In this document: one piece after another, positions 10,473 through 56,464 of the stretch
Layout of the letters: each line of letters opens with the position of its first letter
How positions within the stretch are numbered: the stretch's first letter is position 1
Source: Acidimicrobiales bacterium
GTDB lineage: Bacteria > Actinomycetota > Acidimicrobiia > Acidimicrobiales > SZUA-35
Length of the DNA stretch: 64,000 nt
Direction: 5' to 3'
NCBI GenBank assembly: GCA_965216675.1
Contig: CBDCGK010000004.1
Coordinates: forward strand, 3,150,061 to 3,214,060
Program-made: the position numbers and the translations under genes
The notes under the pieces: generated by a model
Seen by the model: only the letters and a program-made list of their open reading frames with translations
The model's database searches: none
What the model was told of the DNA's origin: nothing

Positions 10473-10476
10473 GACA

Positions 10477-20805: not shown

Positions 20806-20807
20806 CG

Positions 20808-21761: not shown

Positions 21762-21825
21762 TCTCTACTCCTCCTTCCGCTCTTCTCAACATCGGTTTGT
21801 GTGACCAAGCCCGGGGTGGCGGGCG

Positions 21826-21858
21826 GTGAATGACGGGCCGTGTTGGCCCGTCATTCAC
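21826..21858. other. intercistronic stem-loop (14-bp perfect stem, 5-nt loop) between the SBP and permease genes
   Basis: gtgaatgacgggcc-gtgtt-ggcccgtcattcac. Confidence 0.7.
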
Positions 21859-21888
21859 GGCGAGCCCGTCACCCCGGGCGAACAAGCA

Positions 21889-23712: not shown

Positions 23713-23734
23713 GATCTCCCCTTCTGAGTGATGG

Positions 23735-25920: not shown

Positions 25921-26069
25921 ATGGCTAACATGGGAACACATTGGTGTGACGGAGGTCAACTCGGTCGCAATCTTGCAATACAGGTCTCGATCCTTGCCGA
26001 CGCTCGCGTAGCGAGCGGGCGTTGTGAGACGGTTTTGCGTTCGGAACCGAGTGGTCGGAGGAGCATCAG

Positions 26070-39156: not shown

Positions 39157-41206
39157 ATGAGCGATGCCACCAGCCCGACGACCACCGTGACCGGGTCGTG
39201 TCACCATGACTGCCCCGACACCTGTATGTGGGTCGTCGAGGTCGACGACGGCCGGGCGGTGAGCCTGCGGGGCGCGGAGGACCACCCGGTCACCGCCGGC
39301 CAGCTGTGTCCGAAGGTCAACCGGTTCCTCGACCGGGTCTACCACCCTGACCGGCTCCTCCACCCGCTGCGCCGGGTCGGGCCGAAGGGATCCGGTGAGT
39401 ACGAGCCGATCGGCTGGGACGAGGCGCTCGACGAGATCGCCGGCCGTCTCGGCGCCTTCCGAGACGCCGGTCGGGCCGACGCCGTGCTGCAGTTCTCCTT
39501 CGACGGCACCCAGGGGGTGATCCAGAAGGGCATCCTGGCCGATCGGTTCTTCGACGCCTTCGGAGCCAGCGACATCCGGCGGCACCTGTGCGGCACCACC
39601 GCCTGGCTCGGCGCGGCCGACGTGTACGGCACGCCCTACGGCATCGACCCCGAGCTGCTGGACCGGGCTCAGACCATCGTGTTGTGGGGCACCGACACGA
39701 TGTTGACCAACCGCCACCTGTGGCCGATCATCGAACGGGCCCGATCGGCAGGCGCCGTTGTCGTCGTGATCGATCCGGTTCGGTCCGCCACCGCCCAGCG
39801 AGGTGATGAGCACCTCCAGGTTCGGCCCGGCACCGACGTCGCCCTCGTGCTGTCACTGGTCCACGTCCTCGACCGGGACGGCCTACTCGACCACGACTGG
39901 CTGGCCGACCACACCTCCGGCTGGGCCGAGCTGCACTCGTCGGCGCAACCGTGGACGCCGGAGCGGGCCGCGGCCGAGACCGGCATCGCCGCCGAGCGTA
40001 TCGAGTGGCTGGCCCACCGGCTGGCCCGATCGAGACCGGCCGCCATCCGCACCCTCGTCGGACCCGAGCACCGACGCAACGGCCGCGAGATCATGCGGGC
40101 CACGGCCATGCTCTCCGCGGTGACCGGGGCGTGGCGCGACGCCGGTGGCGGGCTGGCCCGGTCGACCCAGGTCTATTTCGAGACCGCACTCAACTACCCG
40201 ACCGACCGACCGGAGCGTCGCCGGTTCAACATGGCCCGCCTCGGCCAGATCCTCACCGACCCCGATCTCGACCCGCCGATCGAGGCGCTGGTGGTCCACA
40301 ACTCGAATCCGGCGGTCATCGTGCCCGACCAGAATCGGATCGTGACCGGGCTCGAACGCAACGACCTGTTCACCGTCGTCATCGAGCAGTTCATGACCGA
40401 CACCGCCCGCTACGCCGATGTCGTGCTGCCGGCCACCACCCAGATCGAACACCTCGACCTCGGCATCGCCTGGGGCCACCTCTACCTGTCGCTCAACCAG
40501 CCGGCCGTCGCCCCCCTGGGTGAGGCCCTGCCCAACACCGAGATCTTCCGACGGCTCGCCGCCCGTCTCGGGCTCGCCGCCCCCGGCCTGGCCGACAGCG
40601 ACGAGGCCCTCATCCGCGAACTGCTCGACACCGACCATCCGTGGACCGAGGGCATCACCTACGAGCTGCTCGCACAAGACGGCTGGGCCCGGCTCCGCAT
40701 CCCCACCGACCACCGACCCTATGTCGACGCCGAACCCCGACACCGCCGACGGCCGGCTGCAGCTCGGAGCCCTCGATCATCAACCGGGCTCGGCCGGGCC
40801 GCAGCCGGTTGACGGCTCCGGCTCCCGCCGACCGCTCGGTTTGATCAGCCGCAAGCAGCACCCGAAGTTCCTCAACGCCAACTACGGCGGGTTCGCCGAG
40901 CACCTCCCGAACCCGCCGGAGCCCCGGATCGACATCCACCCCGTCGACGCCGAGGTTCGTGGTGTGGCCGACGGAGCCGCGGTGCGGGTCCACAACGAAC
41001 TGGGCAGCCTGACCCTCACCGCCCGCATCAGCACCGACACCCAACCGGGGCTGGTGACGATCCCGTTCGGCTGGTGGCACGGCGCCACGCCGGAGAACCG
41101 TGGTGTCAACGCACTGACCCGAACGACGCTGCCGCCCGATGAGGAGGGGTCGGCGTTCTTCCACGACACCACCGTCGACGTCGAGCCGATCGGAGGTGGG
41201 TCGTGA
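39157..41206 (+). pseudogene. molybdopterin (MopB superfamily) oxidoreductase, reading frame interrupted by a +1 frame change at ~40700-40745
   Basis: N-terminal [4Fe-4S] motif CHHDCPDTC...C and a molybdopterin oxidoreductase body in ORF 39157..40812. The C-terminal molybdopterin-binding barrel (DGRLQLGAL...RIDIHPVDAEVRGVADGAAVRVHNELGSLTLTARISTDTQPGLVTIPFGWW) continues in ORF 40418..41206, one nt out of register. Confidence 0.8.
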
Positions 41207-42201: not shown

Positions 42202-42942
42202 TCAGATCCAGGCCAACACCGCTTCCATCGGCCACGGCGCCCGTTGGAGCTCGACGGCGTCGACCAACAGCTCGGCGTAGCGCTGACCCCGGCGGGCCTT
42301 GGCCTGGATGAATCGGCGCAGTTGCTGTTCGACGGGGCGGCCCCGCCATTCCGGCTGGCGCTGCAGGGTATGAAACGACCCGAGTTCGCCCTGAGCCTCG
42401 ACGATGATCAGCACCCGCTCGGAGCCGACGGCCCGGATCAGCTCGTCCTCCAGATCCTCGACACAGACGTGGAAACCGATCCGGGCCAGATCGCCGACGG
42501 TCGGCACCGGACCGATTTCGCTCCGGTCGACCGCTCGACGCACCGTTTCGGCGGCATCGGCATCACACAAGCCGGCGACGTCAAGCCCTCGACCTCCCGG
42601 CCCGAGGTCGGCCACAAACCGGCCGACTGCCTGAGCCCCGCCCACCGGGAGGATCACGACACCCTCGGCAGCCAGATCACGGCTGCGTCGCCGGGCCAAC
42701 GTCTCGACGGCGATTTGGTCGGTCACCCCTTCGACGAGGATCACGGCTTCGGTGGCGTCACCGACGAGGTCCAGCGCTCTGGCGGTGGCCCGCTCGGGGG
42801 CTCCCGGTCCGTGGGGGTAGCCGGCCGGCGGGCGTGGCCGCGACTGTGACTGTGGCCGCCGCCGCGACTGCGAGTGCGGGCGGCGTGGCCCGGAATCGGC
42901 GTCGTCTGGACCCTGGACCTCCATGAGGTCAGGGTGGCTCAT
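42202..42942 (-). CDS. stand-alone Toprim domain protein (OLD-family nuclease C-terminal-like)
   Basis: AVILVEGVTDQIAVETL (Toprim Glu motif) ... VAGLCDADAAE (DxD motif). The N-terminus is low-complexity Arg/Pro/Ser/Gln-rich. No ABC ATPase domain. Confidence 0.6.
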   Translation of the reverse strand: MSHPDLMEVQGPDDADSGPRRPHSQSRRRPQSQSRPRPPAGYPHGPGAPERATARALDLVGDATEAVILVEGVTDQIAVETLARRRSRDLAAEGVVILPVGGAQAVGRFVADLGPGGRGLDVAGLCDADAAETVRRAVDRSEIGPVPTVGDLARIGFHVCVEDLEDELIRAVGSERVLIIVEAQGELGSFHTLQRQPEWRGRPVEQQLRRFIQAKARRGQRYAELLVDAVELQRAPWPMEAVLAWI

Positions 42943-42976: not shown

Positions 42977-44170
42977 TCAGGTCTGGTGCGGCTCGAACGG
43001 GAGGTCGCTGATCACCGCCGGGCGGCGACCGTCGGGGGTCTCGATCTCCACCTCGGTGCCCGCCTCCCACCAGCCCCGCTCCATCATCGCCAGTGCGATC
43101 CCGTGCCGGAAGGTCGGCGACCAGGTGGCCGAGGTGACGGCACCGATGGGCTCACCACCGCCTACCGGTTCCACCGGCCAGCGGTGGCGGACGGTACCGA
43201 CCTCGTCGGCGTCGAACAGCAGGCCCATCATGCGCCGCTGCGGCCCCTCGTCCCGCACCCGGCGAAGGGCGTCACGGCCGAGGAAGTCGATGTCGGCATC
43301 GAGGTGGCAGAAGGATTCGAGACGGCATTCGAGCGGGTTATTGGCCACGGTGGCGTCGTTGCCGTAGGAGAGCAGGCCGCCCTCGATGCGCTCGATCAGG
43401 TTCGGGCACCCGGGCCCGACGTCGAGGTCGGCTCCGGCCTCGAACAGGGTGTCCCACAGCGGCTCGGCCAGGTCGGGGCGATCGAGGTAGATCTCGAACC
43501 CGCCCTGCTTGCTCCACCCGGTGCGGGCGGCCAGGAACTCGTGGCCCATGAACTCGACGGGGGCGAAGCGGAAGAAGCCGATGTCGTGGACGGATTCACC
43601 GAACACCCGGGCCACGAGTTCGTCGGCCTTCGGTCCCTGAACGGCCAGCGGGAACACGTCAGGTTCGAACACCTGAACGGCGAGGTCCATGCCCTGGACG
43701 AGTCCGGCCACCCAAAGGCTCATGTCGAGATCGGCGATCGACAGCCAGAAACGATCCTCGGCCAGCTTCAGGATGACCGGGTCGTTGAGCAGCCCACCGG
43801 CGGCGTCGGTCATCGGGGCGTAGAGGCAGCGGCCGGGAGCGGCCTTCGACAGGTCACGGGGGGTGAGGAGCTGCGCGAGGCGGGCGGCGTCGGGGCCGAC
43901 GATCTCGACCTGTCGCTGACACGACACGTCCCACACCTGCACGTGTTCCTTGAGGTGCCGGTAGTCGTCTTCGAGAGAGCGGAACGCGGTGGGCAACAGC
44001 ATGTGGTTGTACACCGTGTAGCCCGTCACACCGGCCGCCTCGACCCGGTTGGAGAACGGGGTGCTTCGCACTCGGAGATTGGGGGACAGGACGGGTGAGG
44101 GAGCGGGAGCCGGCCGGGTCGGAACCGGCACCTCGTCGCCGTTGCGAGGGGCGAGAACTGGAGCAGCCAT
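42977..44170 (-). CDS. aminomethyltransferase family protein (GcvT/DmdA-like, folate-dependent)
   Basis: RSTPFSNRVEAAGVTGYTVYNHMLLPTAFRSLEDDYRHLKEHVQVWDVSCQRQVEIVGPDA...LNDPVILKLAEDRFWLSIAD, a GcvT-fold N-terminal region. The ATG at 44170 is preferred over the ORF-track start at 44272. Confidence 0.75.
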   Translation of the reverse strand: MAAPVLAPRNGDEVPVPTRPAPAPSPVLSPNLRVRSTPFSNRVEAAGVTGYTVYNHMLLPTAFRSLEDDYRHLKEHVQVWDVSCQRQVEIVGPDAARLAQLLTPRDLSKAAPGRCLYAPMTDAAGGLLNDPVILKLAEDRFWLSIADLDMSLWVAGLVQGMDLAVQVFEPDVFPLAVQGPKADELVARVFGESVHDIGFFRFAPVEFMGHEFLAARTGWSKQGGFEIYLDRPDLAEPLWDTLFEAGADLDVGPGCPNLIERIEGGLLSYGNDATVANNPLECRLESFCHLDADIDFLGRDALRRVRDEGPQRRMMGLLFDADEVGTVRHRWPVEPVGGGEPIGAVTSATWSPTFRHGIALAMMERGWWEAGTEVEIETPDGRRPAVISDLPFEPHQT

Positions 44171-44271
44171 GTTTCGAACTCTACGATTGGCCGTTGATAA
44201 GGAACAGTGAAATGTAAGAATGTTGAATAGAGGATGTTTATGACCTCTCCGCCTGTCCGTCATCGGCCGCA

Positions 44272-45165
44272 ATGGACCTGAAGATCCGCCACCTGGAGGT
44301 TTTCCAGGCGGTCTACGAGACCGGCTCGGTGACCGCGGCGGCCCAGCGGTTGCACTGCACGCAACCGGCGGTCAGCGTCGCCCTGGCCAAGTTCGAGGAC
44401 CAGCTCGGAATGCGATTGTTCGAACGCAGCCGGGGCCGGTTCGCCGCCACCCCCGAGGCCGACGTGCTCTATGTCGAGGTGGAACGTGGTCTGCTCGGGT
44501 TCGCCCGCATCGTGGGCAAGGCCGAGGAGCTGCGGGCCGGGTCGGTGCAGCATCTACGGGTCGGCGTCGACGGCTCGCCCGCGATCCGACTGTTGCCCGC
44601 GGTCGTGGCCCAGTTCCTGAGCGACAACCCCGACGTGTCGGTCGACATCTCGCCTCGACCGTCGGCCGAGGTGGTCGACTGGATCGGATCCCGGCTGCTC
44701 GACCTCGGTCTGGTGGAGACGCCACTCGACGCACCCGGCGTCGAGTACGAACCGTTCACCCAGGCTTGCGTCGCCCTCGTTCCGGTCGACCATCCGCGGG
44801 CCGGTGAGCCGGTGCTCACCCCGGCCCTGCTCGACGGGTTCGCGGTGGTCGGCTGCTCCGAACGCCACCCGATCGACACCCAACTGGAGACGGCGTTCAC
44901 CGACGCCGGCGCGTACTTGAACTGTGTGGTGCGGGGCTACTACTTCGCCACGGCCCGCAACCTGGCCCGCTGCGGTGCCGGCGTCGCCTTCGTCGACTCG
45001 CTCAACGCCGACATCGGCGTCGACGACGGCCTGGTGGCCATCCCGTTCGAGCCCACCATCCACTACGAGCAGGCGCTCGTCTACCCGGCCCAGCCCGGAC
45101 CCGGCGCCCTGGTCTCGGACCTACTCGACCGATTGCGGACCGCCCTCGAACCGCACGTGGTGTGA
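44272..45165 (+). CDS. LysR family transcriptional regulator
   Basis: MDLKIRHLEVFQAVYETGSVTAAAQRLHCTQPAVSVALAKFEDQLGMRLFER. Divergent from the GcvT-like gene across a 100-nt AT-rich region. Confidence 0.9.
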   Translation: MDLKIRHLEVFQAVYETGSVTAAAQRLHCTQPAVSVALAKFEDQLGMRLFERSRGRFAATPEADVLYVEVERGLLGFARIVGKAEELRAGSVQHLRVGVDGSPAIRLLPAVVAQFLSDNPDVSVDISPRPSAEVVDWIGSRLLDLGLVETPLDAPGVEYEPFTQACVALVPVDHPRAGEPVLTPALLDGFAVVGCSERHPIDTQLETAFTDAGAYLNCVVRGYYFATARNLARCGAGVAFVDSLNADIGVDDGLVAIPFEPTIHYEQALVYPAQPGPGALVSDLLDRLRTALEPHVV

Positions 45166-45168: not shown

Positions 45169-45780
45169 TCAGCGCTTGGCCAGCCCCTGCATGAACATCG
45201 ATGTGAACTGCTCCACCCGAAGATCGAGATCGGGGCCGACGGTGCGAGAGGGTTCCTCATCGGCACCGGTCTTGCAGTGCAGCATGGCGAGACCGTGCAC
45301 GGCCGACCAGATGAGGACCGAGGCGGCTTCGACGTCGAGGTCCGGGTTGTGGTCCTCGGCGACGGCGGTGACGATGCTCTCCAGGTGCCCGTACGCTCGG
45401 GCGGAGGCCTCGATGAGCTCCGGGTTGGTCGTGTCGACCAGTTCGTCGGTCCACATCACGGCGAAGTGGCCGATCTGGTTGACGGCGACGCCGACGTAGG
45501 CTTTGCCCATCGCCGTCATACGTTCCACGGGATCGTCGATGCCGGCGACTGCCGACTCGAACGCCCGGCACAGGTCCTGGAAGCCCTCGATGGCGACGGC
45601 GGTGAGAAGGCCCCGGGAGTCGCCGAAGTGGTGAGCCGGTGCGGCATGGGAGACCCCGGCCCGACGGGCGACCTCGCGCAGGCTGAAGCCGGCCGGTCCC
45701 CGCTCGGCGACGAGTTCGACGGTGGCCGTTCGTAGTGCGGTCGGGAGATCGCCGTGATGGTAGGTGGTCGCTGCGTTCAT
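45169..45780 (-). CDS. TetR/AcrR family transcriptional regulator
   Basis: YHHGDLPTALRTATVELVAERGPAGFSLREVARRAGVSHAAPAHHF. Start taken at MNAATTY (45780; alternative 45807), because the ORF-track start at 45858 lies inside the operator repeats. Confidence 0.85.
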   Translation of the reverse strand: MNAATTYHHGDLPTALRTATVELVAERGPAGFSLREVARRAGVSHAAPAHHFGDSRGLLTAVAIEGFQDLCRAFESAVAGIDDPVERMTAMGKAYVGVAVNQIGHFAVMWTDELVDTTNPELIEASARAYGHLESIVTAVAEDHNPDLDVEAASVLIWSAVHGLAMLHCKTGADEEPSRTVGPDLDLRVEQFTSMFMQGLAKR

Positions 45781-45832
45781 AGGAGATGTGGGCCTGACGG
45801 GTGACATGACGCCTCCAAGGCTGACAACGACG

Positions 45833-45936
45833 TTGACACTGTCCGTTGACACTGTCAAGTTTTTCGGACTCAGGTCTTGACAGTGGCAACATCTCTGCGT
45901 AGGGTTTCGATCTTACCACTGGAAACTTGACACTGG
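45833..45936. promoter_or_regulatory. TetR/MMPL divergent control region with four TTGACA(C/G)TG repeats, one forming the palindrome TTGACAcTGTCAA
   Basis: ttgacactgtc 45833-45843; ttgacactgtcaa 45846-45858; ttgacagtgg 45877-45886; ttgacactgg 45927-45936. Confidence 0.65.
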
Positions 45937-45978
45937 CAATATCCACGAGACGCGAACCGGATCAAACAGGTAGGACCC

Positions 45979-48828
45979 ATGAAGAGACCACCGCACACAG
46001 ACGCCACCGCCGGCACCGGTCAGCGGCCGACGAGAACCAGCAGGATCGTCGAGACCCTGGCCACCCACACCGGGCTCCTGGTCGCGGCGGTTCTCGTCGC
46101 CACCGCCGTCTTGACCGTGCCCTTCCTCACCATGGCCCCGACCGAGTCGGCCTCGACCGAGCCGACCGGTGACGTGTTCACGGCCCGGGACCGGATCGAC
46201 GAATCCTTTGTCTCGACCGTGCACCCGACCTTCCTCATCCTCGAGCACACGTCGGGCGACATCCTGACCGTCCAGGCCCTGTCCAGCCTGCTGGCCGCCG
46301 AGAACGACTTGCGTTCCCATCCCGAGTTCGGCTCGACGTTGATCAGCTACGTCGACCCCGACACCACGATCGAAGTCGACGGTGTCATCTCCATCGCCGA
46401 CCTCGTCGAGGCCGAACTCCGGAACCAGTCCATCGACGGTATGGCCGCCGCCACCGACGCCGATGTCAAGCGGATCGGCTCGGCGATCATCGACGAGCTC
46501 GGCGAACGATCCGAGCTGCTCGGCATCTCCGCCCGGTCGACCCGGTCGGACGACGGCTGGACCGTACCCGCCGTCTCGCTCCTCGTTCTGTCCGACAACG
46601 AGGCACTCGGCTTCGGGAACGTCTCGGTTGCCCTCGGCGGCGACACGGAGGTCGAGGAGTTCGATCGGGACATCCAGGAGGTGTTCCGAGTCGACGGCTG
46701 GCAGGCCAACGGCGTCGCCATCGACGTCAACCTGACCTCCCGGGAACAGGGTGCCGTGGCCGGACCATTCATCGGCTTCACCATCCTGGCCGTCCTCCTT
46801 CTGGTCGGTCTCACATTCCGGAGCTACTGGGTTCTCGCCACCGTCAGCGCCTCCTTCCTCCTCCTCATCGTCTGGCTGAAGGGCGTCTCCAACCTGATCG
46901 GCCTGAAGGACGATCTCGTCCTGTCACTCATCGTGCCGGTGGCGATGATCAGCTTCGGCGTCGACTTCGCCTTCCACGCCGTCGGCCGCTACCGGGAGGA
47001 GCGAGCCGAAGGTCACCCGGCGTCGAGAGCGAGCGTGGCCGGCCTCACCGCGGTGTCCGGTGCGCTGTTCCTGGCGCTGATCTCCGACACGTCCGCTTTC
47101 CTGGCCAACCTCACCTCCGGTATCGAGTCGATCAACCAGTTCGGCATCGGCGCCGCCATTGCGCTCGTGTCCGCCTATCTCCTCCTCGGCATCGTGGTTC
47201 CGCTGGTCGTCGCCCGACTGGAGGCCGACGTTCCGTTGCCCACCGAGGGGCGCCGCTCCACGCTGCTGCGCACGTTGGGATCGTTCGGTACCGCGGGGCT
47301 GACGATGGCCTCGGTGCTGATGCTGGTCTACGTCAGCCCTGCCATCGGTATCGGGCTGACAGTAGCGACCTTGCTGTTCGGGCTCCTGGTGCCGTTTCTG
47401 GTCAGCCGTCGCCGACCCGGACCTCGGGTTGGCGACACTGGATCCGGCGACGGCTCACAGGTCGCCGCGGGGCGGTTGGCCGGCCGTGTCGGATCCGCGG
47501 TTCGAGCCTTGGCCGAACGACGCCGGATCGTACTGCCGGTCGCCCTCCTGGTGACCGCCGGCATGGCGAGCCTCGCCGTGCAGGTTCCGGCGGAGTTCGA
47601 TGTCGAGGACTTCTTCAGCGGTGACACTGACTTCGTGGTTGGTCTCGATCAGCTCGATACCCACGTCGGCGACCGGGGTGGGGAGCCGGCGATCATCTAT
47701 CTCGAAGGCGATCTCACCGACCCCGACAGACTGAGCCTGGTCGCCGGCCGTATCGAGGAGATCCGAGGCCTCGACACGCCGTCGCTCGCTCGAGATGACG
47801 ACGGCCGGGTCACGATCGACACGGGCGTCTTCGAGATCTTCGCACGCGCTCTCGACAGCGAGATCATGCCCATCCTCGTAGCCGACCGGACCGGCGTGAT
47901 CCTCAGCGACGGCAACGCCGACGGAATTCCCGACACCCGTGAGCAGATCGAGGCCCTGCTCGCCGTGGTCGGCGAGACGGGCATCCCGCTCGATGGGGAG
48001 AGGCTTCTGGTCACGCCTGACCAGGTCAACACCGTCGTGCAGATCAGTCCACGCGAGGACGAACCGGACCGGGCCGTTCTGCAGCTCGGCGTCGTCGACA
48101 GCCGGGCTCAGGAGTCGGTGACCGCCACCCGCGATGCGCTCGAACCCGTCGTGACAGCCATGTCGGCCGATCTCGACAACACCTTCGTGGAGGTCACCGG
48201 CAGCGCACTGGTCCGGGAGGCGTCGCTGGCGGGAACGAACCGGGCCCTGCAGCTGTCGCTTCCGCTGTCGGTGGTGCTCTGCTTGATCATCGCCACCGTC
48301 TTCCTCCGCTCCATCCGCTACGGTGTGGCTGCGGTCATCCCGATCCTGATGGTGGTGGCCTGGCTCTACGGGTTCATGTACCTCGCCGGATACGCCATCA
48401 ACATCGTCACCGCCACCATCGCCGCCGTGTCGATCGGGATCGGTATCGATTTCGCCATCCATTACATCGTGCGGTTCCGGGAGGAGCTGGCCGGTCGGGC
48501 CGACCGGCTGGCTGCGGCCCAGGCCGCGGGTGAGGGGACCGGGACCGCGCTGGTGGCCTCCGCGATCAGCTCGGCCGTCGGCTTCGGCATCCTGGCCTTC
48601 GCCCCGATGCCGCTGTTCGCGGCCTACGGTTTGCTGACGGCACTCATGATCACCATGGCGCTGATCGCCACACTCACCGTCCTCCCCGGTGTGTTGGTGA
48701 TCGCGTCGAATGGGGCGTTGGGTGATCGGTCGATCGGGTCCCGCGCTTCGTCGGTCGACGTGGACGCCGCATACCACAGCCCCGACGATCGCATGGTGCA
48801 GGTGACGACCGGTGGCACGGTACCGTGA
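45979..48828 (+). CDS. MMPL/RND-superfamily membrane transporter
   Basis: 949 aa with two blocks of ~6 TM helices, each preceded by a large soluble loop, which is typical MMPL architecture. Confidence 0.8.
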   Translation: MKRPPHTDATAGTGQRPTRTSRIVETLATHTGLLVAAVLVATAVLTVPFLTMAPTESASTEPTGDVFTARDRIDESFVSTVHPTFLILEHTSGDILTVQALSSLLAAENDLRSHPEFGSTLISYVDPDTTIEVDGVISIADLVEAELRNQSIDGMAAATDADVKRIGSAIIDELGERSELLGISARSTRSDDGWTVPAVSLLVLSDNEALGFGNVSVALGGDTEVEEFDRDIQEVFRVDGWQANGVAIDVNLTSREQGAVAGPFIGFTILAVLLLVGLTFRSYWVLATVSASFLLLIVWLKGVSNLIGLKDDLVLSLIVPVAMISFGVDFAFHAVGRYREERAEGHPASRASVAGLTAVSGALFLALISDTSAFLANLTSGIESINQFGIGAAIALVSAYLLLGIVVPLVVARLEADVPLPTEGRRSTLLRTLGSFGTAGLTMASVLMLVYVSPAIGIGLTVATLLFGLLVPFLVSRRRPGPRVGDTGSGDGSQVAAGRLAGRVGSAVRALAERRRIVLPVALLVTAGMASLAVQVPAEFDVEDFFSGDTDFVVGLDQLDTHVGDRGGEPAIIYLEGDLTDPDRLSLVAGRIEEIRGLDTPSLARDDDGRVTIDTGVFEIFARALDSEIMPILVADRTGVILSDGNADGIPDTREQIEALLAVVGETGIPLDGERLLVTPDQVNTVVQISPREDEPDRAVLQLGVVDSRAQESVTATRDALEPVVTAMSADLDNTFVEVTGSALVREASLAGTNRALQLSLPLSVVLCLIIATVFLRSIRYGVAAVIPILMVVAWLYGFMYLAGYAINIVTATIAAVSIGIGIDFAIHYIVRFREELAGRADRLAAAQAAGEGTGTALVASAISSAVGFGILAFAPMPLFAAYGLLTALMITMALIATLTVLPGVLVIASNGALGDRSIGSRASSVDVDAAYHSPDDRMVQVTTGGTVP

Positions 48829-48861
48829 AGTGAGGCGCCGCCGTGCGATACGCTCCACAGG

Positions 48862-49908
48862 GTGAGCGAACCGCTGCTCGACGTCGACGGTCTCGTCACC
48901 CGGTTCCGAACGGCCGACGGTGTGGTCCATGCCGTCAACGGCGTCTCGTTTCAGGTGCACGCAGGTGAGACGGTCGGAGTGGTCGGCGAGAGCGGTTCCG
49001 GCAAGTCGGTCACGATGCTGTCGCTGGTCGGGCTCATCCGCAGCCCGCCAGGCAGCGTCGAAGGGGGAACAGCCCGATTCCGGTCCGACGACGCGCCCGT
49101 CGACCTGCTGCAGCTCGGCAACGACGGCCTCCGTCGAATCCGTGGCGACGAGATCGGGATCGTGTTCCAGGATCCGAGCGAGTCGCTCAACCCGGTGATG
49201 ACGGTGGGCCGCCAGATCACCGAGTCGTTGCGTCAGCCCCGAGGCGGTCGGCGCCTCGGTCGGCGAACGGCCCGGACGAAGGCGATCGACCTGCTGCGCC
49301 GGGTTGGCATCGCCGACCCCGAAAGACGATTCGACAGCTACCCCCATGAGCTGTCGGGCGGCATGCGTCAGCGGGCGGTCATCGCCATCGCGCTGGCCGG
49401 CGATCCGTCGCTGATCATCGCCGATGAGCCGACCACTGCACTGGACGTCACCGTCCAGGCCCAGATCCTCGATTTGATGAAGCAGCTCCAGGTCGAGCGG
49501 AACCTGGCCATGGTCTGGGTCAGCCACGATCTGGGTGTGGTGGCCGCTATCGCCGACCGGGTCCTGGTGCTGTACGCGGGCACGGTGGTGGAATCGGCGT
49601 CGGTCGAAGAACTCTTCGAGCGACCCCAGCACCCCTACACCCGCGCTCTGCTGGCCGCGCTGCCCAGCCACGAGGACGCCGGCCAGCCCTTACGGGCCAT
49701 CCCCGGTGCGCCACCCAGCCTGGCTGCCGAGCCGACGTCGTGCCCCTTCGCCGAGCGGTGCGCCCACGTGTTCGATCGGTGCCGGATCCAGCGGCCCGGA
49801 CTGGCCGAGGTCGCGCCCGGCCACCAGGTCGCCTGCTTCTGGGACATCGACGGCGACCGTCTCCGAGACGACGTGCCGGTGGCATCGACCCGGGCATTCG
49901 TGCCGTGA
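48862..49908 (+). CDS. orphan ABC transporter ATP-binding protein (OppD/DppD-like)
   Basis: Walker A GESGSGKS, signature LSGGMRQR, Walker [21 protein letters not shown] oligopeptide-type C-terminus. GTG start. No adjacent permease or SBP. Confidence 0.88.
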   Translation: MSEPLLDVDGLVTRFRTADGVVHAVNGVSFQVHAGETVGVVGESGSGKSVTMLSLVGLIRSPPGSVEGGTARFRSDDAPVDLLQLGNDGLRRIRGDEIGIVFQDPSESLNPVMTVGRQITESLRQPRGGRRLGRRTARTKAIDLLRRVGIADPERRFDSYPHELSGGMRQRAVIAIALAGDPSLIIADEPTTALDVTVQAQILDLMKQLQVERNLAMVWVSHDLGVVAAIADRVLVLYAGTVVESASVEELFERPQHPYTRALLAALPSHEDAGQPLRAIPGAPPSLAAEPTSCPFAERCAHVFDRCRIQRPGLAEVAPGHQVACFWDIDGDRLRDDVPVASTRAFVP

Positions 49909-49921
49909 GCGGAGCCGACCT

Positions 49922-52000
49922 TTGACCCGGCCCGCCACGCACGCCGTCCGCACCGTCGAACACACCTGGATCGAACTGGCCGACGGCGCCCGCCTGAGCG
50001 CCCGGCTGCGGCTACCCGTCGACCCCGATCCGGGGCCCGTGCCCGCCGTGGTCGAATACATCCCGTATCGCAAGGACGACGGCACGCTGCTGCGCGACAA
50101 CCGCCAGCACCACCACCTGGCCGCCCGCGGCTACGCCATGGTTCGGGTCGACATTCGAGGCTCGGGCGACTCAGACGGCGCCCTCCGCGGCGAGTACCTG
50201 GCCACCGAGCTGAGCGACGGCGTCGAGGTCATCGACTGGATAAGCCGCCAGCCGTGGTGCGACGGGCGGGTCGCCATCATGGGCATTTCATGGGGAGGGT
50301 TCAACGCCCTCCAGATCGCAGCGCTGCAACCCCCGGCGCTGGCCGCGGCGGTGGCCGTGGCCGCCACCGACGACCGCTTCGCCACCGACGTGCACTACAT
50401 CGGCGGCTGCGTGCTGGCCGCCGACATGGCGGGCTGGTCGGCGACCATGGCCTGCTTCAACGCCCGCCCGTCGACCCCCCGGATCGTGGCCGCGGCCGAC
50501 GGCATCCATGTGGCGGAGTGGCGGGACCGGTGGCTGCACCGGCTCGAACAGACACCGATCTTCGTGCACGACTGGCTCACCCACCAGCGTCGAGACGGGT
50601 TCTGGGAACACGGATCGGTGTGCGAGGACTACTCGGCCATCCGCTGCCCGGTGATGACCGTGGGCGGGTGGGCCGACGGCTACACCGACACCGTGTTACG
50701 CCTCGCAGCGGGGCTGAGCGTCCCGTACCGGGCGATCGTCGGGCCGTGGTCACACAACTACCCGTTCGTCGGCGTGCCCGGACCCAACATCGACTTCATC
50801 GGCGAGGTCGTCGACTTCTTCGACCGCCACCTGGGTGCCCACGGCAGCACCGAGGCCGGGATCCAGCCGGACTCGACCTGGGAGGCGGAGCCGGTGCGGA
50901 TCTGGATGCAGGATCACGTCACCCCGGCGCCCTCCTACCTCGGACGCCCCGGACGCTGGATCGCCGAGCCGTCGTGGCCATCGCCCAACGTGTCGACGCA
51001 GTCCCGGTGGTTGACAGCCGACCGGCGGCTGACCGCCGACCAGCCGGCCGGGCCGGGTGAGACGATCAGTGGCGGCAACCCCCTGACCGCGGGCCTGCAT
51101 CAGGGCAACTGGTGGGGCTACGCCGCACCGGGACAGCTCCCGACCGATCAGCGGCTCGCCCCCGATCCGGCCTTCCGCTTCGATGGTGAGCCGGTCGACC
51201 GGGCCGTTGATCTGGTCGGGATCGCCGAGTTGCGGCTGCGGGTGGCGGCCGACGCCCCGGTGGCCCAGGTCGCGGCCCGACTGTGCGATGTCGCCCCCGA
51301 CGGATCGATGCTGCAGATCAGCCGAGGGGTGTTGAACCTCACCCATCGACACGGCCACGCCGACCCGGAGCCGTTGGTGCCCGGGGAACCGGTCGACGTC
51401 ACGGTCGTGCTCGACGGTATGGCCCACCGGCTGCCGGCCGGTCACCACCTGAGCCTGCTCATCACGTCCAGCCTCTGGCCGTTGGTGTGGCCGTCGCCGA
51501 CCGACGTCGTGTTGACCCTCGAACCCGGTCCCGGCTGCGAACTCCGGCTACCGGTGCGCACCGAACCGGTCGACGCCTCGGCGACCGGACCCGCACCCTT
51601 CGGCGAACCGGCCATGGCCGACGACCAGGCCGAGATCACGGCCCCGGCGACCTCCGCCCGCATCATCACGACCGACGCCACCACGGGCACCGTCACCGTG
51701 ACCGACCACGACGACGCCGGCACCATCACCTTCGACGACCACCGCACCGCCATGTCATCGACGGCCACCGACACCTGGACCATCACCCTCGGCGACCCGT
51801 TGAGCGCCCGCGTCACCTGCGACCGAACCTGGTCGGTGGCGTGGCCCGAGGAGTCGACGGCGGTTGCCGTGGAGACGAGCTCGGACATGTGGTGCGACGC
51901 CACCCACTTCCACACCCGTGACATCGTGACCGCCCACCTCCAGAACGAGGTCGTCTTCAGTCGCACCTACGAGTCCTCCGCTCCCCGGGACCATCAGTAG
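49922..52000 (+). CDS. CocE/NonD family hydrolase (X-Pro dipeptidyl-peptidase S15-like alpha/beta hydrolase)
   Basis: PAVVEYIPYRKDD...GYAMVRVDIRGSGDSDG...VAIMGISWGGF (GxSxG). TTG start with GGAG 6 nt upstream, 13 nt after the ATPase stop. The ORF-track start at 49535 overlaps the ATPase gene. Confidence 0.8.
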   Translation: MTRPATHAVRTVEHTWIELADGARLSARLRLPVDPDPGPVPAVVEYIPYRKDDGTLLRDNRQHHHLAARGYAMVRVDIRGSGDSDGALRGEYLATELSDGVEVIDWISRQPWCDGRVAIMGISWGGFNALQIAALQPPALAAAVAVAATDDRFATDVHYIGGCVLAADMAGWSATMACFNARPSTPRIVAAADGIHVAEWRDRWLHRLEQTPIFVHDWLTHQRRDGFWEHGSVCEDYSAIRCPVMTVGGWADGYTDTVLRLAAGLSVPYRAIVGPWSHNYPFVGVPGPNIDFIGEVVDFFDRHLGAHGSTEAGIQPDSTWEAEPVRIWMQDHVTPAPSYLGRPGRWIAEPSWPSPNVSTQSRWLTADRRLTADQPAGPGETISGGNPLTAGLHQGNWWGYAAPGQLPTDQRLAPDPAFRFDGEPVDRAVDLVGIAELRLRVAADAPVAQVAARLCDVAPDGSMLQISRGVLNLTHRHGHADPEPLVPGEPVDVTVVLDGMAHRLPAGHHLSLLITSSLWPLVWPSPTDVVLTLEPGPGCELRLPVRTEPVDASATGPAPFGEPAMADDQAEITAPATSARIITTDATTGTVTVTDHDDAGTITFDDHRTAMSSTATDTWTITLGDPLSARVTCDRTWSVAWPEESTAVAVETSSDMWCDATHFHTRDIVTAHLQNEVVFSRTYESSAPRDHQ

Positions 52001-52054
52001 GTCAACCCATCATCGAGTGACACCGCCCAGTGAGGATCCAGCAAGGAACAGCTC

Positions 52055-53638
52055 ATGACCGACTCGCCTCGATCGACCGTCGTCATCTCCATCGACGCCG
52101 TGGCCCCCCGCTACGTCACGCCCGACACGATGCCCAACCTCGTGGCGCTCGGGCGAGCCGGTGCGGCCTGCTACCGGGCCCGTACCGTCAACCCGCCGAT
52201 CACCATGCCGGCCCACATCTCACTGCTTCGGGGAATCGATCCGTCCGTCCACGGTGTGCTCGACAACACCGCAACGACCCTGACCCCCGAAGCGGCGGCC
52301 GTGCCGACGTTCCTGGAACGGGTACGGCGAGACGCCGGGCTCGACACCGCGTCGGTGGTGTCGTGGGCGCCCATGGATGCCGCCGTCGATCGGGGTGCCG
52401 TCTCGACGAGAATGTTGTTCGACGACGGCTACAACCCCGACATCGACGACGTGATCGTCGACCGTCTCATCGAGCTGGTGACCGGGGGCCGACACGGCGT
52501 GATCTTCGGCTACCTCATCGCCCCCGACCTGGCCGGTCACGACCACGGGTGGGGGAGCAACCGGTACCTCGAGGCGCTGCGGCGGGTCGACGCCGCCTTC
52601 GGACGGTTGGCCACAGCGTGTGGACCCGACGACACCCTGATCGTCACCACCGACCACGGTGGGCTCGGCACCGACCACGGGGTCGACCGGCCCGAGGACA
52701 TGGAGATCTTCGTGGCCGCCCGCTCGCCGCTCGTGGCGCCGGGCTCGATCTGGTCGTCGGCCTCGATCCTCGACGTGGCCCCGACGGTGGCCGAGCTGAG
52801 TTCGGTCGACCCGCATCCGGCTTGGCGGGGAACCTCGCTGCTCGGACGGGAACGCCGCCTGGTCGACGTGTTGGGCGGCCTGGTCGACGACATGGCGGCG
52901 CACACCTACGGCGAGCGGGTCACGATGCGCGACCACGCCCTGCAAACCGCGTCCAACGCCCGAGCGGTCGGCGCCTCGTCGTCGATGATCGCCGCCGCGC
53001 TGTTGCACGACATCGGTCACCTGACCGATGACGCCGGAGCATGGGGTCTGCCCGACCACGCCGAGGAGGCGGGGAGGATGTGGCAGGCGTTGTTGCCACC
53101 GGAGGTGGTGGAGCCGATCCGGCTGCACGTGGCGGCCAAACGGTGGCTGGTGGCCAACGACCCCGACTACCGCGCCCGGTTGAGCGAGGCCTCGCTGGTG
53201 ACCCTGGACCAGCAGGGCGGCCCGTTCGACGCCATCGAGTCGACTGCGTTCCTGGCCCGCCCGTTCGCCGCCGAGGCCATCGAGCTGCGACGCTGGACGA
53301 CGGCGGCAAGCGGATCGAGGCCGACGGCTCACCGGCCCCGACGCCGACGCTCGATGAACTGCTGCCGTACGTCGAGGAGGCCCTGGCCACCGGTTCCGGA
53401 GATTCGGTCTCGGCCACGTGGGCCCGCGACGCCTGCCGGTGCGAGCTGTGCCGAGACCCGGGCAACGACCAGCACCTCCTCGACCCCGATGACCTCGACG
53501 GGTGGCGGACCGTCGCCGTCGATCGCTCCGCCGATCCGACCGTGGTCGTGGTTCGACGCGGGGCCGACGAGCACCGGTGCCGGATTCCGGCGGCGGCCTG
53601 GAGAGACGGCCATGCCGGTGAAGCTGCCACCGGTATGA
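52055..53638 (+). CDS. segment 1 of an interrupted reading frame: NPP/type I phosphodiesterase (alkaline-phosphatase superfamily) domain fused to a PhnZ/TmpB-like HD-domain oxygenase; sense ends at ~53296, the remainder of the ORF is out-of-frame junk
   Basis: NPP domain: VVISIDAVAPRY, PPITMPAHISLLRGIDPSVHGVLDN (Thr nucleophile context), TTDHGGLGTDHG. HD domain: HTYGERVTMRDHALQTA...AAALLHDIGH...IRLHVAAKRWL...LDQQGG...AIELRRW. Confidence 0.75.
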   Translation: MTDSPRSTVVISIDAVAPRYVTPDTMPNLVALGRAGAACYRARTVNPPITMPAHISLLRGIDPSVHGVLDNTATTLTPEAAAVPTFLERVRRDAGLDTASVVSWAPMDAAVDRGAVSTRMLFDDGYNPDIDDVIVDRLIELVTGGRHGVIFGYLIAPDLAGHDHGWGSNRYLEALRRVDAAFGRLATACGPDDTLIVTTDHGGLGTDHGVDRPEDMEIFVAARSPLVAPGSIWSSASILDVAPTVAELSSVDPHPAWRGTSLLGRERRLVDVLGGLVDDMAAHTYGERVTMRDHALQTASNARAVGASSSMIAAALLHDIGHLTDDAGAWGLPDHAEEAGRMWQALLPPEVVEPIRLHVAAKRWLVANDPDYRARLSEASLVTLDQQGGPFDAIESTAFLARPFAAEAIELRRWTTAASGSRPTAHRPRRRRSMNCCRTSRRPWPPVPEIRSRPRGPATPAGASCAETRATTSTSSTPMTSTGGGPSPSIAPPIRPWSWFDAGPTSTGAGFRRRPGETAMPVKLPPV

Positions 53639-54504
53639 CCGGCGACGGGTCGGCGGCACAATCGGGGCCCGACGAACGCACCGTCCGTTGGGATCGCGAC
53701 ACGATGAAAGCGGCGACCGACGCCTGGGTCGATCACGGCTCGGACGGTTGGATCGATCGGGCCGCCGTCGCCGTCGACCGCTACGGTCTCGCCGTGCTGA
53801 CCGGCGTGTCGACCGAACCCGGCACCGTGCTGACGGTGGCCGAGGACCTCGGGTTCGTACGGGTCACCAACTACGGCGACCTGTTCGACGTACGCAACGA
53901 ACCGCAACCCGAGAACCTGGCCTACACCTCGGTGGGGCTGCCACTGCACACCGACAACCCGTACCGGCAGCCGTGCCCGTCTGTGCAGCTCCTGCACTGT
54001 CTGCGGCCCGCCGACGAGGGCGGCGGCTCCGTGCTCGTCGACGGCTTCGAGGCGGCCGATCGGTTGCGATCCGGTGATCCGGCGGCCTTCGCCACCCTCG
54101 CCGCGACGCCGGTCCGGTTCCGGTTCCACAGCGAGGGTGGCGGAGGCGACAGCGACGATTCCTGGGTCGACCTGCAAGCGCAACGCACGATCATCGAGGT
54201 CGATCCGACCGGCCGGGTGAGAGCGGTCAACGTCAACCACCGGAGCATGGAGGCACCCGTTCGCGGTCCGGGCGTCGACGAGTTCTACCGGGCCTACCTC
54301 CGGTTCCATCGGCTTCTGGCCGAACCGGAGCTTGCCCTCGAACTGACGATGGCGGCCGGCGAGTTGATCGTTTTCGACAACCGCCGGGTCCTTCACGCCC
54401 GAACCGCGTTCGACACGTCGTCGGCCCGCCACCTCCAGGGCTGCTACATCGACATCGACGCCCTGCGGTCCCGGGCCCGCTGCGCAACCTCGGTCATGTC
54501 ATGA
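53297..54504 (+). CDS. segment 2 of the same interrupted frame: end of the HD domain followed directly by a gamma-butyrobetaine-hydroxylase/TmpA/PhnY-like Fe(II)/2-oxoglutarate dioxygenase
   Basis: This frame (ORF track 53041..54504) reads (W)DDGGKRIEADGSPAPTPTLDELLPYVEEAL, then ATWARDACRCELC (CxCxxC zinc module), then the TauD core LPLHTDNPY...GGGSVLVDG...VFDNRRVLHAR. No stop and no plausible start codon lies between the HD tail and the dioxygenase. Confidence 0.75.
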
Positions 54505-55299
54505 GATCGGCCACTGGATCTCGGTGAGGATCTCGTCGGGCTCCACCGTGGTCGGGTCATTGAGGTAGATCTCGCGTGGCGGACCGGCGAACTGGTGACC
54601 GTGCTCCTGCACCCAACCAGTGAGTGTGTGGTAGGCCGGTGACACCTGGTCGTACGGGCCCTTGTGGATCGTGGTGGCCATGGCTGCACCGTCGAGCCTC
54701 CGCGCCCGCACATCACCGACCGGTTCGATGAGTTCGGCGACCGGGAAGCAGATCTCGATGTCGCCGTCGGTTTCGTCGTCGATGACGTCGTGGAAGATCA
54801 CGAACGGCGGTCCGGCCGGCGGTCCGCCGAGTGCAGCACCGACCTGGCCGAACCCACCGGCCAGGTCCGTGGCGATCGAAGCCAGATCGGTGTGGATACG
54901 CAGCGAGGCCACGTTGATGGTCGGGACTTCCTTCACGGTCACGGTGTAGGGCATGATCGACTCCTTGTTCTCGATGAGGCGTCGGAGGTAGGCGAGCATG
55001 CGTTGCTGGTCGGCCAGGCGGGCTTCGAGCCGCTCCCGGTGGGTGTCGAGATGCTTCTGGATGATCTCGGGGTCGTCGTTGTCCAGAACGACGTGGATCT
55101 CATCCAGCGGCATGTCGATCGATCGCAACGTGCGGATCGCCTCAGCCGTGTTTGCCTGCGACAGCCGGTAGTAGCGATACCCGGACTGCTGGTCGACCTG
55201 TGCCGGTCGCAGCAGGCCTATCTCGTCGTAGTGGCGAAGCGCCTTGACGGACAGTCGGGTCATGGCGGAGAACCGCCCGATCGGAACCAACTCGTTCAT
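54499..55299 (-). CDS. MerR family regulator with GyrI-like effector-binding domain
   Basis: MNELVPIGRFSAMTRLSVKALRHYDEIGLLRPAQVDQQSGYRYY. AAAGGAG lies 9 nt upstream of the ATG at 55299. Confidence 0.88.
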   Translation of the reverse strand: MNELVPIGRFSAMTRLSVKALRHYDEIGLLRPAQVDQQSGYRYYRLSQANTAEAIRTLRSIDMPLDEIHVVLDNDDPEIIQKHLDTHRERLEARLADQQRMLAYLRRLIENKESIMPYTVTVKEVPTINVASLRIHTDLASIATDLAGGFGQVGAALGGPPAGPPFVIFHDVIDDETDGDIEICFPVAELIEPVGDVRARRLDGAAMATTIHKGPYDQVSPAYHTLTGWVQEHGHQFAGPPREIYLNDPTTVEPDEILTEIQWPIS

Positions 55300-55393
55300 G
55301 CTCACCAACTCCTTTCCTCTTCACGTTCGGGTTTGCTTTCGGGGACCATGCTCGGGTCTCCCGTTACCGGAGAGTCAAGAGGCTTTCGTGACG

Positions 55394-56464
55394 TCACCTG
55401 CTGAGGGCGATGATCCGGCCGGCCACATGGTCGGTGAGCAGCACCTGGTCGCCGTCGACGGTCAAGTGCTGGGGATGTTCGGCCACCGTGGATGCGACGC
55501 TGTAGGTGCCCTCGCCGGCAGCCGGACCGGACCCGGTCGACACCGCCACCACCTGACCCTCGTTCCACAGCGCCACCAACAACACCTCGGGATCCCACGG
55601 TGCCGCCACCACCGATGTGGGAGTGGCGCCCGCCGGGAACACGGCCAACGGTCGAGGCTTGGTGGCGCAGTCCTGCTCGGTGCCGCCGTATTCGATCACG
55701 ACTCGGTTATCGCCCACACATCGGGGCCAGCCGTGATCGGCGCCGGGCGTGACCGGCACCAGTTCGTCGAGTGGCCGTTCACCGTCGTAGCGGCCGTCAC
55801 CGATCTCAGTCGTGTAGAGGGTGCCATCGGCGGTGTCGCCGCCACCGTCTTCGCCGCCGGTGCGGACCTGGGCATAGGCGTGTTTGAATCCGGTGGCCAC
55901 CTCCGTGATCCGGCCGTCGGCCGTCACCGCCCACAGTGTCCCCGACCCCGGCGTCGGGGTGCCGTCGACCTCGAGCCGGCCCGAGGTGTCGTAGAGCAAC
56001 CGGTCGCCGTCGACCGTGAGCGTGCCCTCCGATCGTCCGTTGGTGGGAAGGTCGTCGGCCACCACCACCCGGTCGGAGCCGTCGACCGCTCCGCCGATCG
56101 GCCCCCGGGTCAGCCGGTCGCGTTCCATCACCCACAGGTCACCGGCGAACAGTGCGATACCGGTGGGCTTGTCGAGACCGACGAGGATCACCTCGGGCCC
56201 GGCACCGGGGTCATCGGGGTCGAGCCGCACCACCTGACCCGTCCCGTCGTCCTCCCCGCCGGCCAGCTGGGCCAGCCACCAGGAGCCGTCGTCGGCCACC
56301 ACCAGTTGGGTCGGCCCGGCGAGGCCGGTCACCAGCACCACCTCGTTGAGTGAGCCGGTGACGTCATCGTGGGATCCGGTGTCGTCGGCGACACAACCGG
56401 TGGCCAGAGCGATGACAACCGCGGCGACCATCGACCGGCGGAGGAACGGAACCATGGTCGACAA
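55394..56464 (-). CDS. beta-propeller lipoprotein, PQQ-dependent sugar (sorbosone/glucose) dehydrogenase-like
   Basis: Signal peptide plus lipobox VVIALATGC. Repeated propeller-like strands and a DELVPVTPGADHGWPRC motif resembling the GSDH family. The start may instead be the ATG at 56455. Confidence 0.5.
   Translation of the reverse strand: MSTMVPFLRRSMVAAVVIALATGCVADDTGSHDDVTGSLNEVVLVTGLAGPTQLVVADDGSWWLAQLAGGEDDGTGQVVRLDPDDPGAGPEVILVGLDKPTGIALFAGDLWVMERDRLTRGPIGGAVDGSDRVVVADDLPTNGRSEGTLTVDGDRLLYDTSGRLEVDGTPTPGSGTLWAVTADGRITEVATGFKHAYAQVRTGGEDGGGDTADGTLYTTEIGDGRYDGERPLDELVPVTPGADHGWPRCVGDNRVVIEYGGTEQDCATKPRPLAVFPAGATPTSVVAAPWDPEVLLVALWNEGQVVAVSTGSGPAAGEGTYSVASTVAEHPQHLTVDGDQVLLTDHVAGRIIALSR

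Follow-up and report, generated by a model that had tools for sequence, protein, structure and literature searches.

A compact acidimicrobial gene block as a probable mosaic of three modules, ending in a three-domain, putatively phosphonate-cleaving protein

In this study, we analysed a 9.3-kb stretch of an Acidimicrobiales contig (CBDCGK010000004.1; positions 45,169 to 54,504 of a window of 64,000 nt), in which a divergent TetR repressor gene is followed by genes for an MMPL transporter, an OppD-type ABC ATPase, a peptidase S15 (CocE/NonD) hydrolase and a protein that joins an NPP phosphodiesterase, an HD oxygenase and a 2-oxoglutarate (2OG) hydroxylase domain, here called the fusion. We consider it probable that this stretch is a mosaic in which three units of different ancestry have come to lie head-to-tail on one strand, because a comparison of gene neighbourhoods splits it into TetR-MMPL, OppD-S15 and the fusion. 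An initial annotation had instead seen a four-gene, TetR-controlled pathway for the acquisition of a phosphonate-containing lipid, peptide or ester. As far as sequence comparison goes, that phosphonolipid-acquisition unit, which would have been a pathway architecture without precedent, is a chance juxtaposition and is not to be carried forward as a unit; the earlier interpretation appears to hold for no more than the sequence of reactions within the last gene. The comparison drew on a listing of open reading frames (ORFs) and Pfam scans of the window, and on related loci, which are given L-numbers below; feature coordinates are collected in Table 1.

The TetR and MMPL genes appear to form a self-contained pair of repressor and MMPL/RND exporter. 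When metagenomes were scanned with the MMPL protein, 78 loci were recovered, 76 of them with an MMPL match. A TetR homologue lies immediately upstream and divergent in 31 of these 76, including nearly all loci of at least 50% identity that have upstream sequence, and none of the 76 has OppD, S15 or the fusion downstream of MMPL. No fusion locus, in turn, carries an adjacent MMPL gene on the same strand. In six of seven loci examined, the gene after MMPL either converges on it or is separated from it by more than 380 nt, the exception being L097, where a same-strand ORF abuts the MMPL gene; the MMPL protein of L098, 80% identical to that of the window, sits in a different context. The initial annotation had itself proposed conservation of the four-gene neighbourhood as a test, and on this point its proposal failed: MMPL-OppD adjacency occurs in this window only.

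The TTGACA repeats that had been noticed before the MMPL gene resolve into three 13-nt palindromes, TTGACAnTG(T/G)CAA, which begin at 45846, 45877 and 45927 in the TetR-MMPL gap and occur nowhere else in the 64 kb, where 0.10 matches would be expected by chance. Of 29 related loci, 12 have the same palindrome in their own TetR-MMPL gap, and at no other place in those loci. Judging from this conservation, TetR would bind the three TTGACAnTGKCAA sites and repress the transporter, and probably itself, until its ligand arrives. Of the regulation first proposed, control of the MMPL gene by TetR is thus very probable, whereas control of a four-gene pathway falls away. The junction with the following module can be read from L090, in which the LysR stop lies 10 nt from the OppD start and the start sequence, GTGAGCGAACCGCTGCTC, is identical to that of the window. 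In the window, the interval from the LysR stop to the OppD start is taken up exactly by TetR and MMPL, a clean insertion of 3.7 kb, for which reason they would be an autonomous pair inserted in this lineage, or else deleted in L090. A divergent repressor and transporter sharing an operator-bearing gap that is conserved in relatives is also the arrangement of TetR-regulated MMPL/RND exporter pairs in Actinomycetota; the window transporter falls into the HAE3/MMPL group, with two stretches matching Pfam PF03176 (88.2 bits; cut-off 20.5) and 144 bits to NCBIfam HAE3, and stays below the HAE3 and MMPL subfamily cut-offs of that collection. BetI was considered as an identity for the TetR protein and rejected, the match being weak and confined to the helix-turn-helix region (39 bits, cut-off 201).

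These findings bear directly on the single-operon model, in which MMPL, OppD, S15 and the fusion are co-transcribed under TetR to acquire a phosphonate-bearing lipid, peptide or ester, S15 de-acylates it, NPP frees the head group, and the 2OG and HD domains extract phosphate. The layout that suggested it was described correctly: after the divergent TetR gene the genes are co-directional with spacings of 33, 13 and 54 nt, and the public protein collection uses identical starts. Moreover, no terminator-like site separates the genes, operators do lie upstream of the first of them, and the fusion is credibly phosphonate-related. We nevertheless regard this model as very improbable, given that MMPL-OppD adjacency was met in none of the 76 MMPL loci and same-strand MMPL beside no fusion, that TetR-MMPL is a separate conserved pair, cleanly inserted here, that operators are confined to the region before the MMPL gene, and that OppD-S15 comes from another operon and is found also without the fusion. 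RND/MMPL transporters are exporters rather than uptake systems, so that a role in acquisition would fit MMPL poorly.

The second module, OppD and S15, appears to be a vestige of an operon linked to dmdA and LysR (OppABCDF-S15-BBOX-like-SDR-HAD), which Ilumatobacteraceae have kept intact. In that family, L169 and L170 carry LysR, a dmdA-like GCV_T gene (minus strand), OppA, OppB, OppC, OppD, OppF, S15, a GBBH-like/TauD gene, SDR and HAD, a cluster that spans positions 1-12676, is apparently complete, and looks like an uncharacterised operon for uptake and catabolism of an onium-type conjugate. Identities between the window and L169 are 65% for OppD, 53% for S15, 63% for GCV_T and 58% for LysR, while the window OppD is only 41% identical to OppF of L169. 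Because OppD, S15, GCV_T and LysR are orthologous to this cluster, the seemingly orphan ATPase would be a retained piece of an Opp-type catabolic operon. Other loci have the gene orders GCV_T(-), LysR, OppD, GBBH-like, S15, fusion (L090), GCV_T(-), OppD, S15, fusion (L003), and GCV_T(-), OppD, S15, MerR(-) with the fusion absent (L088). A divergent GCV_T gene (42977-44272, minus strand in the window) is conserved beside the Opp-S15 cluster in L003, L088, L090 and L169/L170; S15 has thousands of relatives, its orthologues following OppD in L003, L088 and L090 (in the last with a BBOX-like gene between) and OppF in L169/L170. The BBOX/TmpA-like hydroxylase of the ancestral operon (227 bits to the TmpA model, below cut-off), together with the adjacent DmdA, suggests methylated onium compounds as substrates of that operon. 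In L090, the BBOX/TmpA-like gene between OppD and S15 (6881-7900; 339 aa) covers positions 7-274 of the 366 in the TmpA model and may be a decaying copy; between the window OppD and S15, which are 13 nt apart, it is absent.

Both proteins of this module are under purifying selection, like the fusion (dN/dS 0.23-0.39 for OppD and 0.21-0.37 for S15), and for this reason they are probably functional rather than decaying. The assignment of the hydrolase to the S15/CocE type was borne out (TIGR00976, 206.9 bits against a cut-off of 66.3), and its GxSxG motif reads GISWG in the translation. The ATPase shares the ABC_tran domain and the oligo_HPY C-terminal region of OppABCDF/DppABCDF importers, and OppD/DppD models score best. 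Unlike a full importer, however, the window, L003, L088 and L090 keep OppD alone beside S15, with OppA, B, C and F absent; at the window locus, OppD (48862-49908) stands without OppF, permeases or a family-5 binding protein. The initial annotation's statement that no permease or binding protein lies nearby is accurate within about 20 kb and does not extend to the whole window, which also contains a complete Opp/Dpp-type transporter on the minus strand (19834-25959) with OppD (24778-25959), OppF (23735-24778), a family-5 binding protein (21889-23943), one permease at 20808-21761 and a second at about 19870-20529. This system could be the partner of the orphan OppD. An identity of the latter as the C-P lyase ATPase PhnK or PhnL was excluded by score (PhnK 137 bits, cut-off 303; OppD/DppD above 320 bits) and by its evident orthology to the OppD of a full Opp operon.

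The third module is the fusion, which belongs to a widespread and uncharacterised three-domain family whose gene is usually solitary. Using as query the 816-aa protein reconstructed as described below, we found 212 relatives at E < 1e-10; of the best 120, nearly all have a length of 700-930 aa and contain Phosphodiest and TauD domains, with or without HD. More than 100 relatives are full-length, mostly from Acidimicrobiia, Ilumatobacteraceae and Ca. Poriferisodalis, with a few from Proteobacteria, and database names, where given, are just "TauD/TfdA family dioxygenase" or "HD domain-containing protein". The HD and 2OG domains are fused in more than 100 relatives and encoded by adjacent separate genes in at least 60 other loci; in Kitasatospora, Streptomyces and Alphaproteobacteria, among many others, such separate genes run TauD then HD, the order of tmpA and tmpB. 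The fusion stands alone in L001 and L085-L087, lacks OppD-S15 in all nine distant species representatives, and shares no neighbour family across more than three of these nine loci. Its sole recurrent neighbour in the distant loci, present in three of nine, is a luciferase-like monooxygenase gene, not adjacent but 2-6 kb upstream (L085 5758-6759, L087 3617-4609, L012 7910-8968). S15 precedes the fusion only in the close clade of at least 69% identity, where it does so in five of six loci. In a literature search that left subscription journals mostly uncovered, we found no description of an NPP-HD-2OG fusion or of a phosphonolipid phosphodiesterase linked to PhnZ or TmpB.

Several observations weigh against so clean a division into three modules. 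The genes are tightly spaced, and read-through co-transcription from the MMPL promoter could occur. A terminator and promoter scan found no intrinsic terminator between the genes and, as the only promoter-like signal, a weak match in the TetR gap on the minus strand; the three intergenic gaps fold no better than shuffled sequences, and no Rfam element was found in 42-57 kb. These results neither part the units nor tie them together. The close-clade loci in which S15 directly precedes the fusion (the window, L002, L003, L004 and L090) have gaps of 8-54 nt, and the ancestral Opp-S15 operon has its own BBOX/TmpA-like hydroxylase. Quaternary-ammonium substrates could thus connect modules 2 and 3 functionally. 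The fusion also falls short of the NCBIfam TmpA and TmpB equivalog cut-offs, so that its substrate may differ from 2-(trimethylammonio)ethylphosphonate (TMAEP), the substrate of TmpA.

A more restricted operon could be drawn from these points, with OppD, S15 and the fusion, linked to LysR, as one functional unit of the close clade and TetR-MMPL as an unrelated insertion; after import of an onium or phosphonate conjugate, S15 would strip off its acyl or peptidyl group, leaving a product for the fusion to mineralise. Besides the recurrent position of S15 immediately 5' of the fusion and the TmpA/BBOX-like hydroxylase of the ancestral operon, it is favoured by L003, where the genes overlap or lie 8 nt apart, and by L090, in which LysR, OppD, BBOX-like gene, S15 and fusion are all co-directional. 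We still hold it to be rather unlikely: L088, L169 and L170 have OppD-S15 without the fusion, L001 and all distant members have the fusion without OppD-S15, the window locus lacks OppA, B, C and F of the importer, and no biochemical link between S15 and the fusion is known. Three separate modules remain our preferred description of the stretch.

The last gene had been described as a single NPP-HD-2OG frame. The three domains are indeed encoded, but not by one ORF: they are divided between the ORFs 52055-53638 and 53041-54504, which overlap and differ in frame, and third-position GC switches frame at about 53296. In a DNA alignment, the window reads CGCT-GGACGAC where L090, L002, L003 and L001 read CGCTGGGACGAC, that is, one G is missing at 53294-53296. 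Re-using G53296 yields a protein of 816 aa that aligns end-to-end with 19 relatives and is gapless through ELRRWDDGGK, while the deposited product is a truncated protein of 527 aa (P0005); P0034 (466 aa) and P0112 (694 aa) have likewise been called as partial products of the three-domain gene. A homopolymer or assembly error of long-read sequencing is appreciably more likely than a true pseudogene as the origin of the 1-nt deletion, since a second break of +/-1 nt occurs in a molybdopterin oxidoreductase gene at about 40.73 kb, two other copies from long-read metagenome-assembled genomes (MAGs) break at different sites (L012 and L013), and pN/pS after the break, at 0.33-0.44 against relatives, equals that of intact copies among themselves (0.32-0.47). 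The molybdopterin oxidoreductase gene (window 39157-41197, plus strand), compared with intact 678-aa orthologues in L001 and L088, is in two frames through a 1-nt insertion in a C-rich run near 40718-40734, within 13 kb of the break in the fusion. The split fusion copies are broken at about 10774-10783 (L012) and about 11176-11182 (L013) (Ca. Poriferisodalis sp.; uncultured Acidimicrobiales bacterium). A programmed frameshift was rejected, there being no slippery motif, while orthologues are single-frame and the other copies break elsewhere.

The opposite case, that the fusion is a genuine pseudogene without phosphonate function here, in a region decaying as a whole (relic OppD, split molybdopterin oxidoreductase, truncated OLD-like gene), strikes us as doubtful, if conceivable. 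The deposited genome encodes the truncated 527-aa product only, a second broken gene lies 12.5 kb upstream, and OppABCF, the BBOX-like gene, SDR and HAD have been lost relative to L169. If the deletion were real, the 2OG domain would be lost, since the window sequence offers it no in-frame start after the break. However, both breaks are +/-1 changes in G/C runs, and the breaks in the other long-read MAG copies lie elsewhere. Past the break, selection shows no relaxation, and on OppD and S15 it is purifying. The reconstructed protein is discussed below, with residue invariance judged over 20 family members.

The domains of this protein fall within the NPP and TmpA/TmpB families without, on their scores, being equivalogs. 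The NPP domain matches Pfam PF01663 at 85.4 bits (cut-off 23), and its AlphaFold model (pLDDT 96) has Xanthomonas NPP as top Foldseek match (probability 1.0, TM about 0.8). Its residues D14, T50, N71, D158, H162, D200 and H201 align with the active site of the Xanthomonas enzyme (Xac NPP), whose counterparts are D54, T90, N111, D210, H214, D257 and H258; these seven positions of the fusion, nucleophile and metal ligands, are invariant in the family alignment, as is H208. The fusion thus shares with Xanthomonas NPP and ENPP proteins the fold, the Thr nucleophile, the Asn and the bimetal ligands, but differs from them in its shorter core (265 aa against about 380 aa), in having no room for a signal peptide and in being fused to cytoplasmic oxygenases. 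Because the metal ligand D14 lies in the first strand and leaves no such room, the three-domain enzyme is predicted to be cytoplasmic. ENPP6 and ENPP7 release phosphocholine, an analogy to the fusion NPP that serves as a lead only.

For the HD and 2OG domains, the proposal of phosphonate-enzyme-like parts proved sound, the nearest solved structures being TmpB (6npa) and TmpA (6npb) with their metal ligands kept. The HD domain finds TmpB 6npa at E 3e-28 to 4e-29, ahead of PhnZ 4mlm at E 9e-22, and its diiron ligands H294, H318, D319, H335, H358 and D415 are invariant and align with both structures. Scores against curated models fall below cut-off: 156.5 of 214.6 bits for TIGR03276, 128.5 of 300 for TmpB NF049941 and 19.6 of 22 for Pfam HD. 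The 2OG domain finds TmpA 6npb at E 1e-61, with 212 bits for TmpA against 131 for BBOX; NCBIfam TmpA (NF049936) is its best model at 314.3 bits, short of the cut-off of 400, followed by gamma-butyrobetaine dioxygenase at 268 bits. Its Fe(II) facial triad H632, D634 and H781 and the 2OG-binding R792 are invariant and align with 6npb, and a Zn-type Cys3His site (C461, C463, C466, H507) is invariant as well. The aromatic positions Y607, F611 and Y624 are conserved, and we take them to be the trimethylammonium-cage positions of BBOX-type enzymes. In the substrate-gating loop, which is YxxE in TmpB/PhnZ HD oxygenases (PMC8177086) and Y-L-G-E in TmpB, the fusion has invariant Y285 and E287 but the spacing Y-G-E, one residue shorter. 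TmpA binds its phosphonate through N187, N287 and R288 (PMC9296572); N187 and R288 correspond to N621 and R730 of the fusion, both invariant, and N287 to H729, which is Asn in several fusion members.

The best solved matches thus come from the TmpA/TmpB system of Leisingera caerulea, a TMAEP hydroxylase and an (R)-1-hydroxy-TMAEP oxygenase. TmpA hydroxylates C1 of TMAEP and TmpB cleaves the C-P bond to yield phosphate and glycine betaine (PMC10574752, PMC8177086). The fusion shares with this pair the facial triad, the 2OG-binding Arg, the six diiron ligands and the phosphonate-binding Asn and Arg that correspond to N187 and R288 (PMC9296572), as well as the two-step logic of hydroxylating and then cleaving (PMC10574752, PMC8177086). 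It differs in an inverted domain order (HD then 2OG), in the NPP domain that precedes the two, in its Y-G-E instead of Y-x-x-E loop, in the His at N287 and the BBOX-type Cys3His site, and in staying below the equivalog cut-offs. A 2OG hydroxylase and an HD oxygenase in one polypeptide are also found in PhoF, the fungal PhnY-PhnZ fusion of Fonsecaea multimorphosa (PMC10574752); PhoF is a two-domain, fungal protein reported to act on 2-aminoethylphosphonate and 3-aminopropylphosphonate, whereas the window family is bacterial, TmpA/TmpB-like and has the NPP domain in addition.

By homology at each of its three steps, the most likely route would be contained in one protein. The NPP domain would act on an esterified quaternary 2-aminoethylphosphonate (a head group of the phosphonocholine type), hydrolysing the ester to supply the oxygenases; the 2OG domain would hydroxylate C1, and the diiron HD domain would then cleave the C-P bond to phosphate and glycine betaine. 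For the fusion alone, what the initial annotation called release by NPP followed by oxidative extraction of phosphorus is a reasonable sequence of events, because the NPP active site is intact; it does not carry over to a four-gene acquisition pathway. We think that the fusion probably frees and oxidatively splits a choline-like phosphonate. As had been noted, canonical C-P lyase and phnWX genes are missing from the 64-kb window by Pfam annotation of its large ORFs. Going further, and only tentatively, NPP-TmpB-TmpA might represent an undescribed, complete one-polypeptide pathway that converts esterified quaternary phosphonates (phosphonolipid head groups, glycerophosphono-diesters) to phosphate and glycine betaine, and that was recruited in the window clade beside an S15/OppD remnant handling an acylated or conjugated precursor.

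Another possibility, which we consider improbable, is that the HD/2OG pair acts on a non-phosphonate substrate, such as a carnitine- or betaine-like alpha-hydroxy acid in the manner of the C-C cleavage by SmaO/SmaX, with NPP serving some other role. Cascades of 2OG and HD enzymes with non-phosphonate substrates do exist (PMC12186529), and the unmet cut-offs (TmpA 314 against 400 bits, TmpB 128 against 300), the gating loop one residue shorter than in TmpB and PhnZ, the His in place of TmpA N287, and the retained BBOX-type Cys3His site, which is absent from TmpA, would all be in keeping with it. On the other hand, all six diiron ligands are present, while SmaX is an atypical single-iron enzyme (PMC12186529); TmpA outscores BBOX by 212 to 131 bits and TmpB ranks above PhnZ; the equivalents of N187 and R288 are invariant (PMC9296572); and fusion to a phosphodiesterase points to a substrate that contains phosphorus.

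The surroundings of the three modules are given here for completeness. G+C content of the 64-kb window is 65-71%, its closest database relatives are labelled Acidimicrobiia, and many of the related contigs from the MMPL scan come from marine metagenomes. Together with the DmdA-type gene, this leads us to suppose that the 5.17-Mb contig belongs to an acidimicrobial genome of marine or sediment origin. Between SnoaL and dmdA, a 246-aa ORF (42202-42942, minus strand) with an OLD-like TOPRIM domain only, absent from syntenic relatives, may be the remnant of a defence gene. On the other side, a MerR/GyrI-like regulator gene (54499-55308, minus strand) runs towards the fusion, with a 6-nt overlap at the stop of the latter, and is followed by a conserved 356-aa protein without Pfam match and with a weak ScyD/ScyE-like match (55394-56464, minus strand) and then by FKBP; synteny of these three extends to L002-L004 and L088, with or without the fusion. 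At the start of the window, a surface protein of 1507 aa with about 12 SpaA-type prealbumin-fold repeats (325-4848, minus strand) lies beside a patatin-like phospholipase (5503-6921, minus strand).

Table 1. Features of the analysed stretch and its upstream neighbours, in window coordinates
Feature	Position	Strand	Evidence or remark	Module
DmdA-type aminomethyltransferase (GCV_T)	42977-44272	-	NCBIfam DMSP demethylase 541.9 bits (cut-off 410)	
LysR regulator	44272-45165	+	Pfam; 82% identical to L090 LysR, which directly precedes OppD	
TetR-family repressor	45169-45858	-	Pfam TetR_N 35.9 bits, TetR_C_33 43.4 bits	1
Three palindromic operator candidates	45846-45858, 45877-45889, 45927-45939		In the TetR-MMPL gap	
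MMPL/HAE3-type RND transporter	45979-48828	+	Pfam MMPL 88.2 bits	1
OppD-type ABC ATPase	48862-49908	+	ABC_tran and oligo_HPY	2
CocE/NonD (peptidase S15) serine hydrolase	49922-52000	+	Peptidase_S15 216.6 bits, PepX_C 137.6 bits	2
NPP phosphodiesterase domain (alkaline-phosphatase superfamily)	52055-52849	+	Pfam Phosphodiest 85.4 bits	3
HD diiron oxygenase domain, TmpB/PhnZ-like	52850-53328	+	Frame break inside last helix	
Frame break (1-nt deletion)	53294-53296	+	GG, GGG in orthologues	
BBOX/TmpA-like Fe(II)/2-oxoglutarate hydroxylase domain	53383-54504	+	Second frame	

In conclusion, this locus illustrates that frame breaks in long-read MAGs can mimic or hide domain fusions, and that an "orphan" OppD can be explicable as the selectively retained relic of a defined operon. 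The three-domain gene represents a large unannotated family of marine and soil Acidimicrobiia and some Proteobacteria, and its architecture joins a phosphodiesterase to an oxidative C-P cleavage pair of the TmpA/TmpB type. If the NPP domain delivers its product to the oxygenases, what the TmpA/TmpB route consumes in nature would be phosphonate esters and not free TMAEP; this would bear on the marine recycling of phosphonolipid phosphorus. Should the one-polypeptide pathway prove true, marine Acidimicrobiia, including sponge-associated Ca. Poriferisodalis, would obtain phosphorus from phosphonolipid debris, and carbon and nitrogen by way of betaine.

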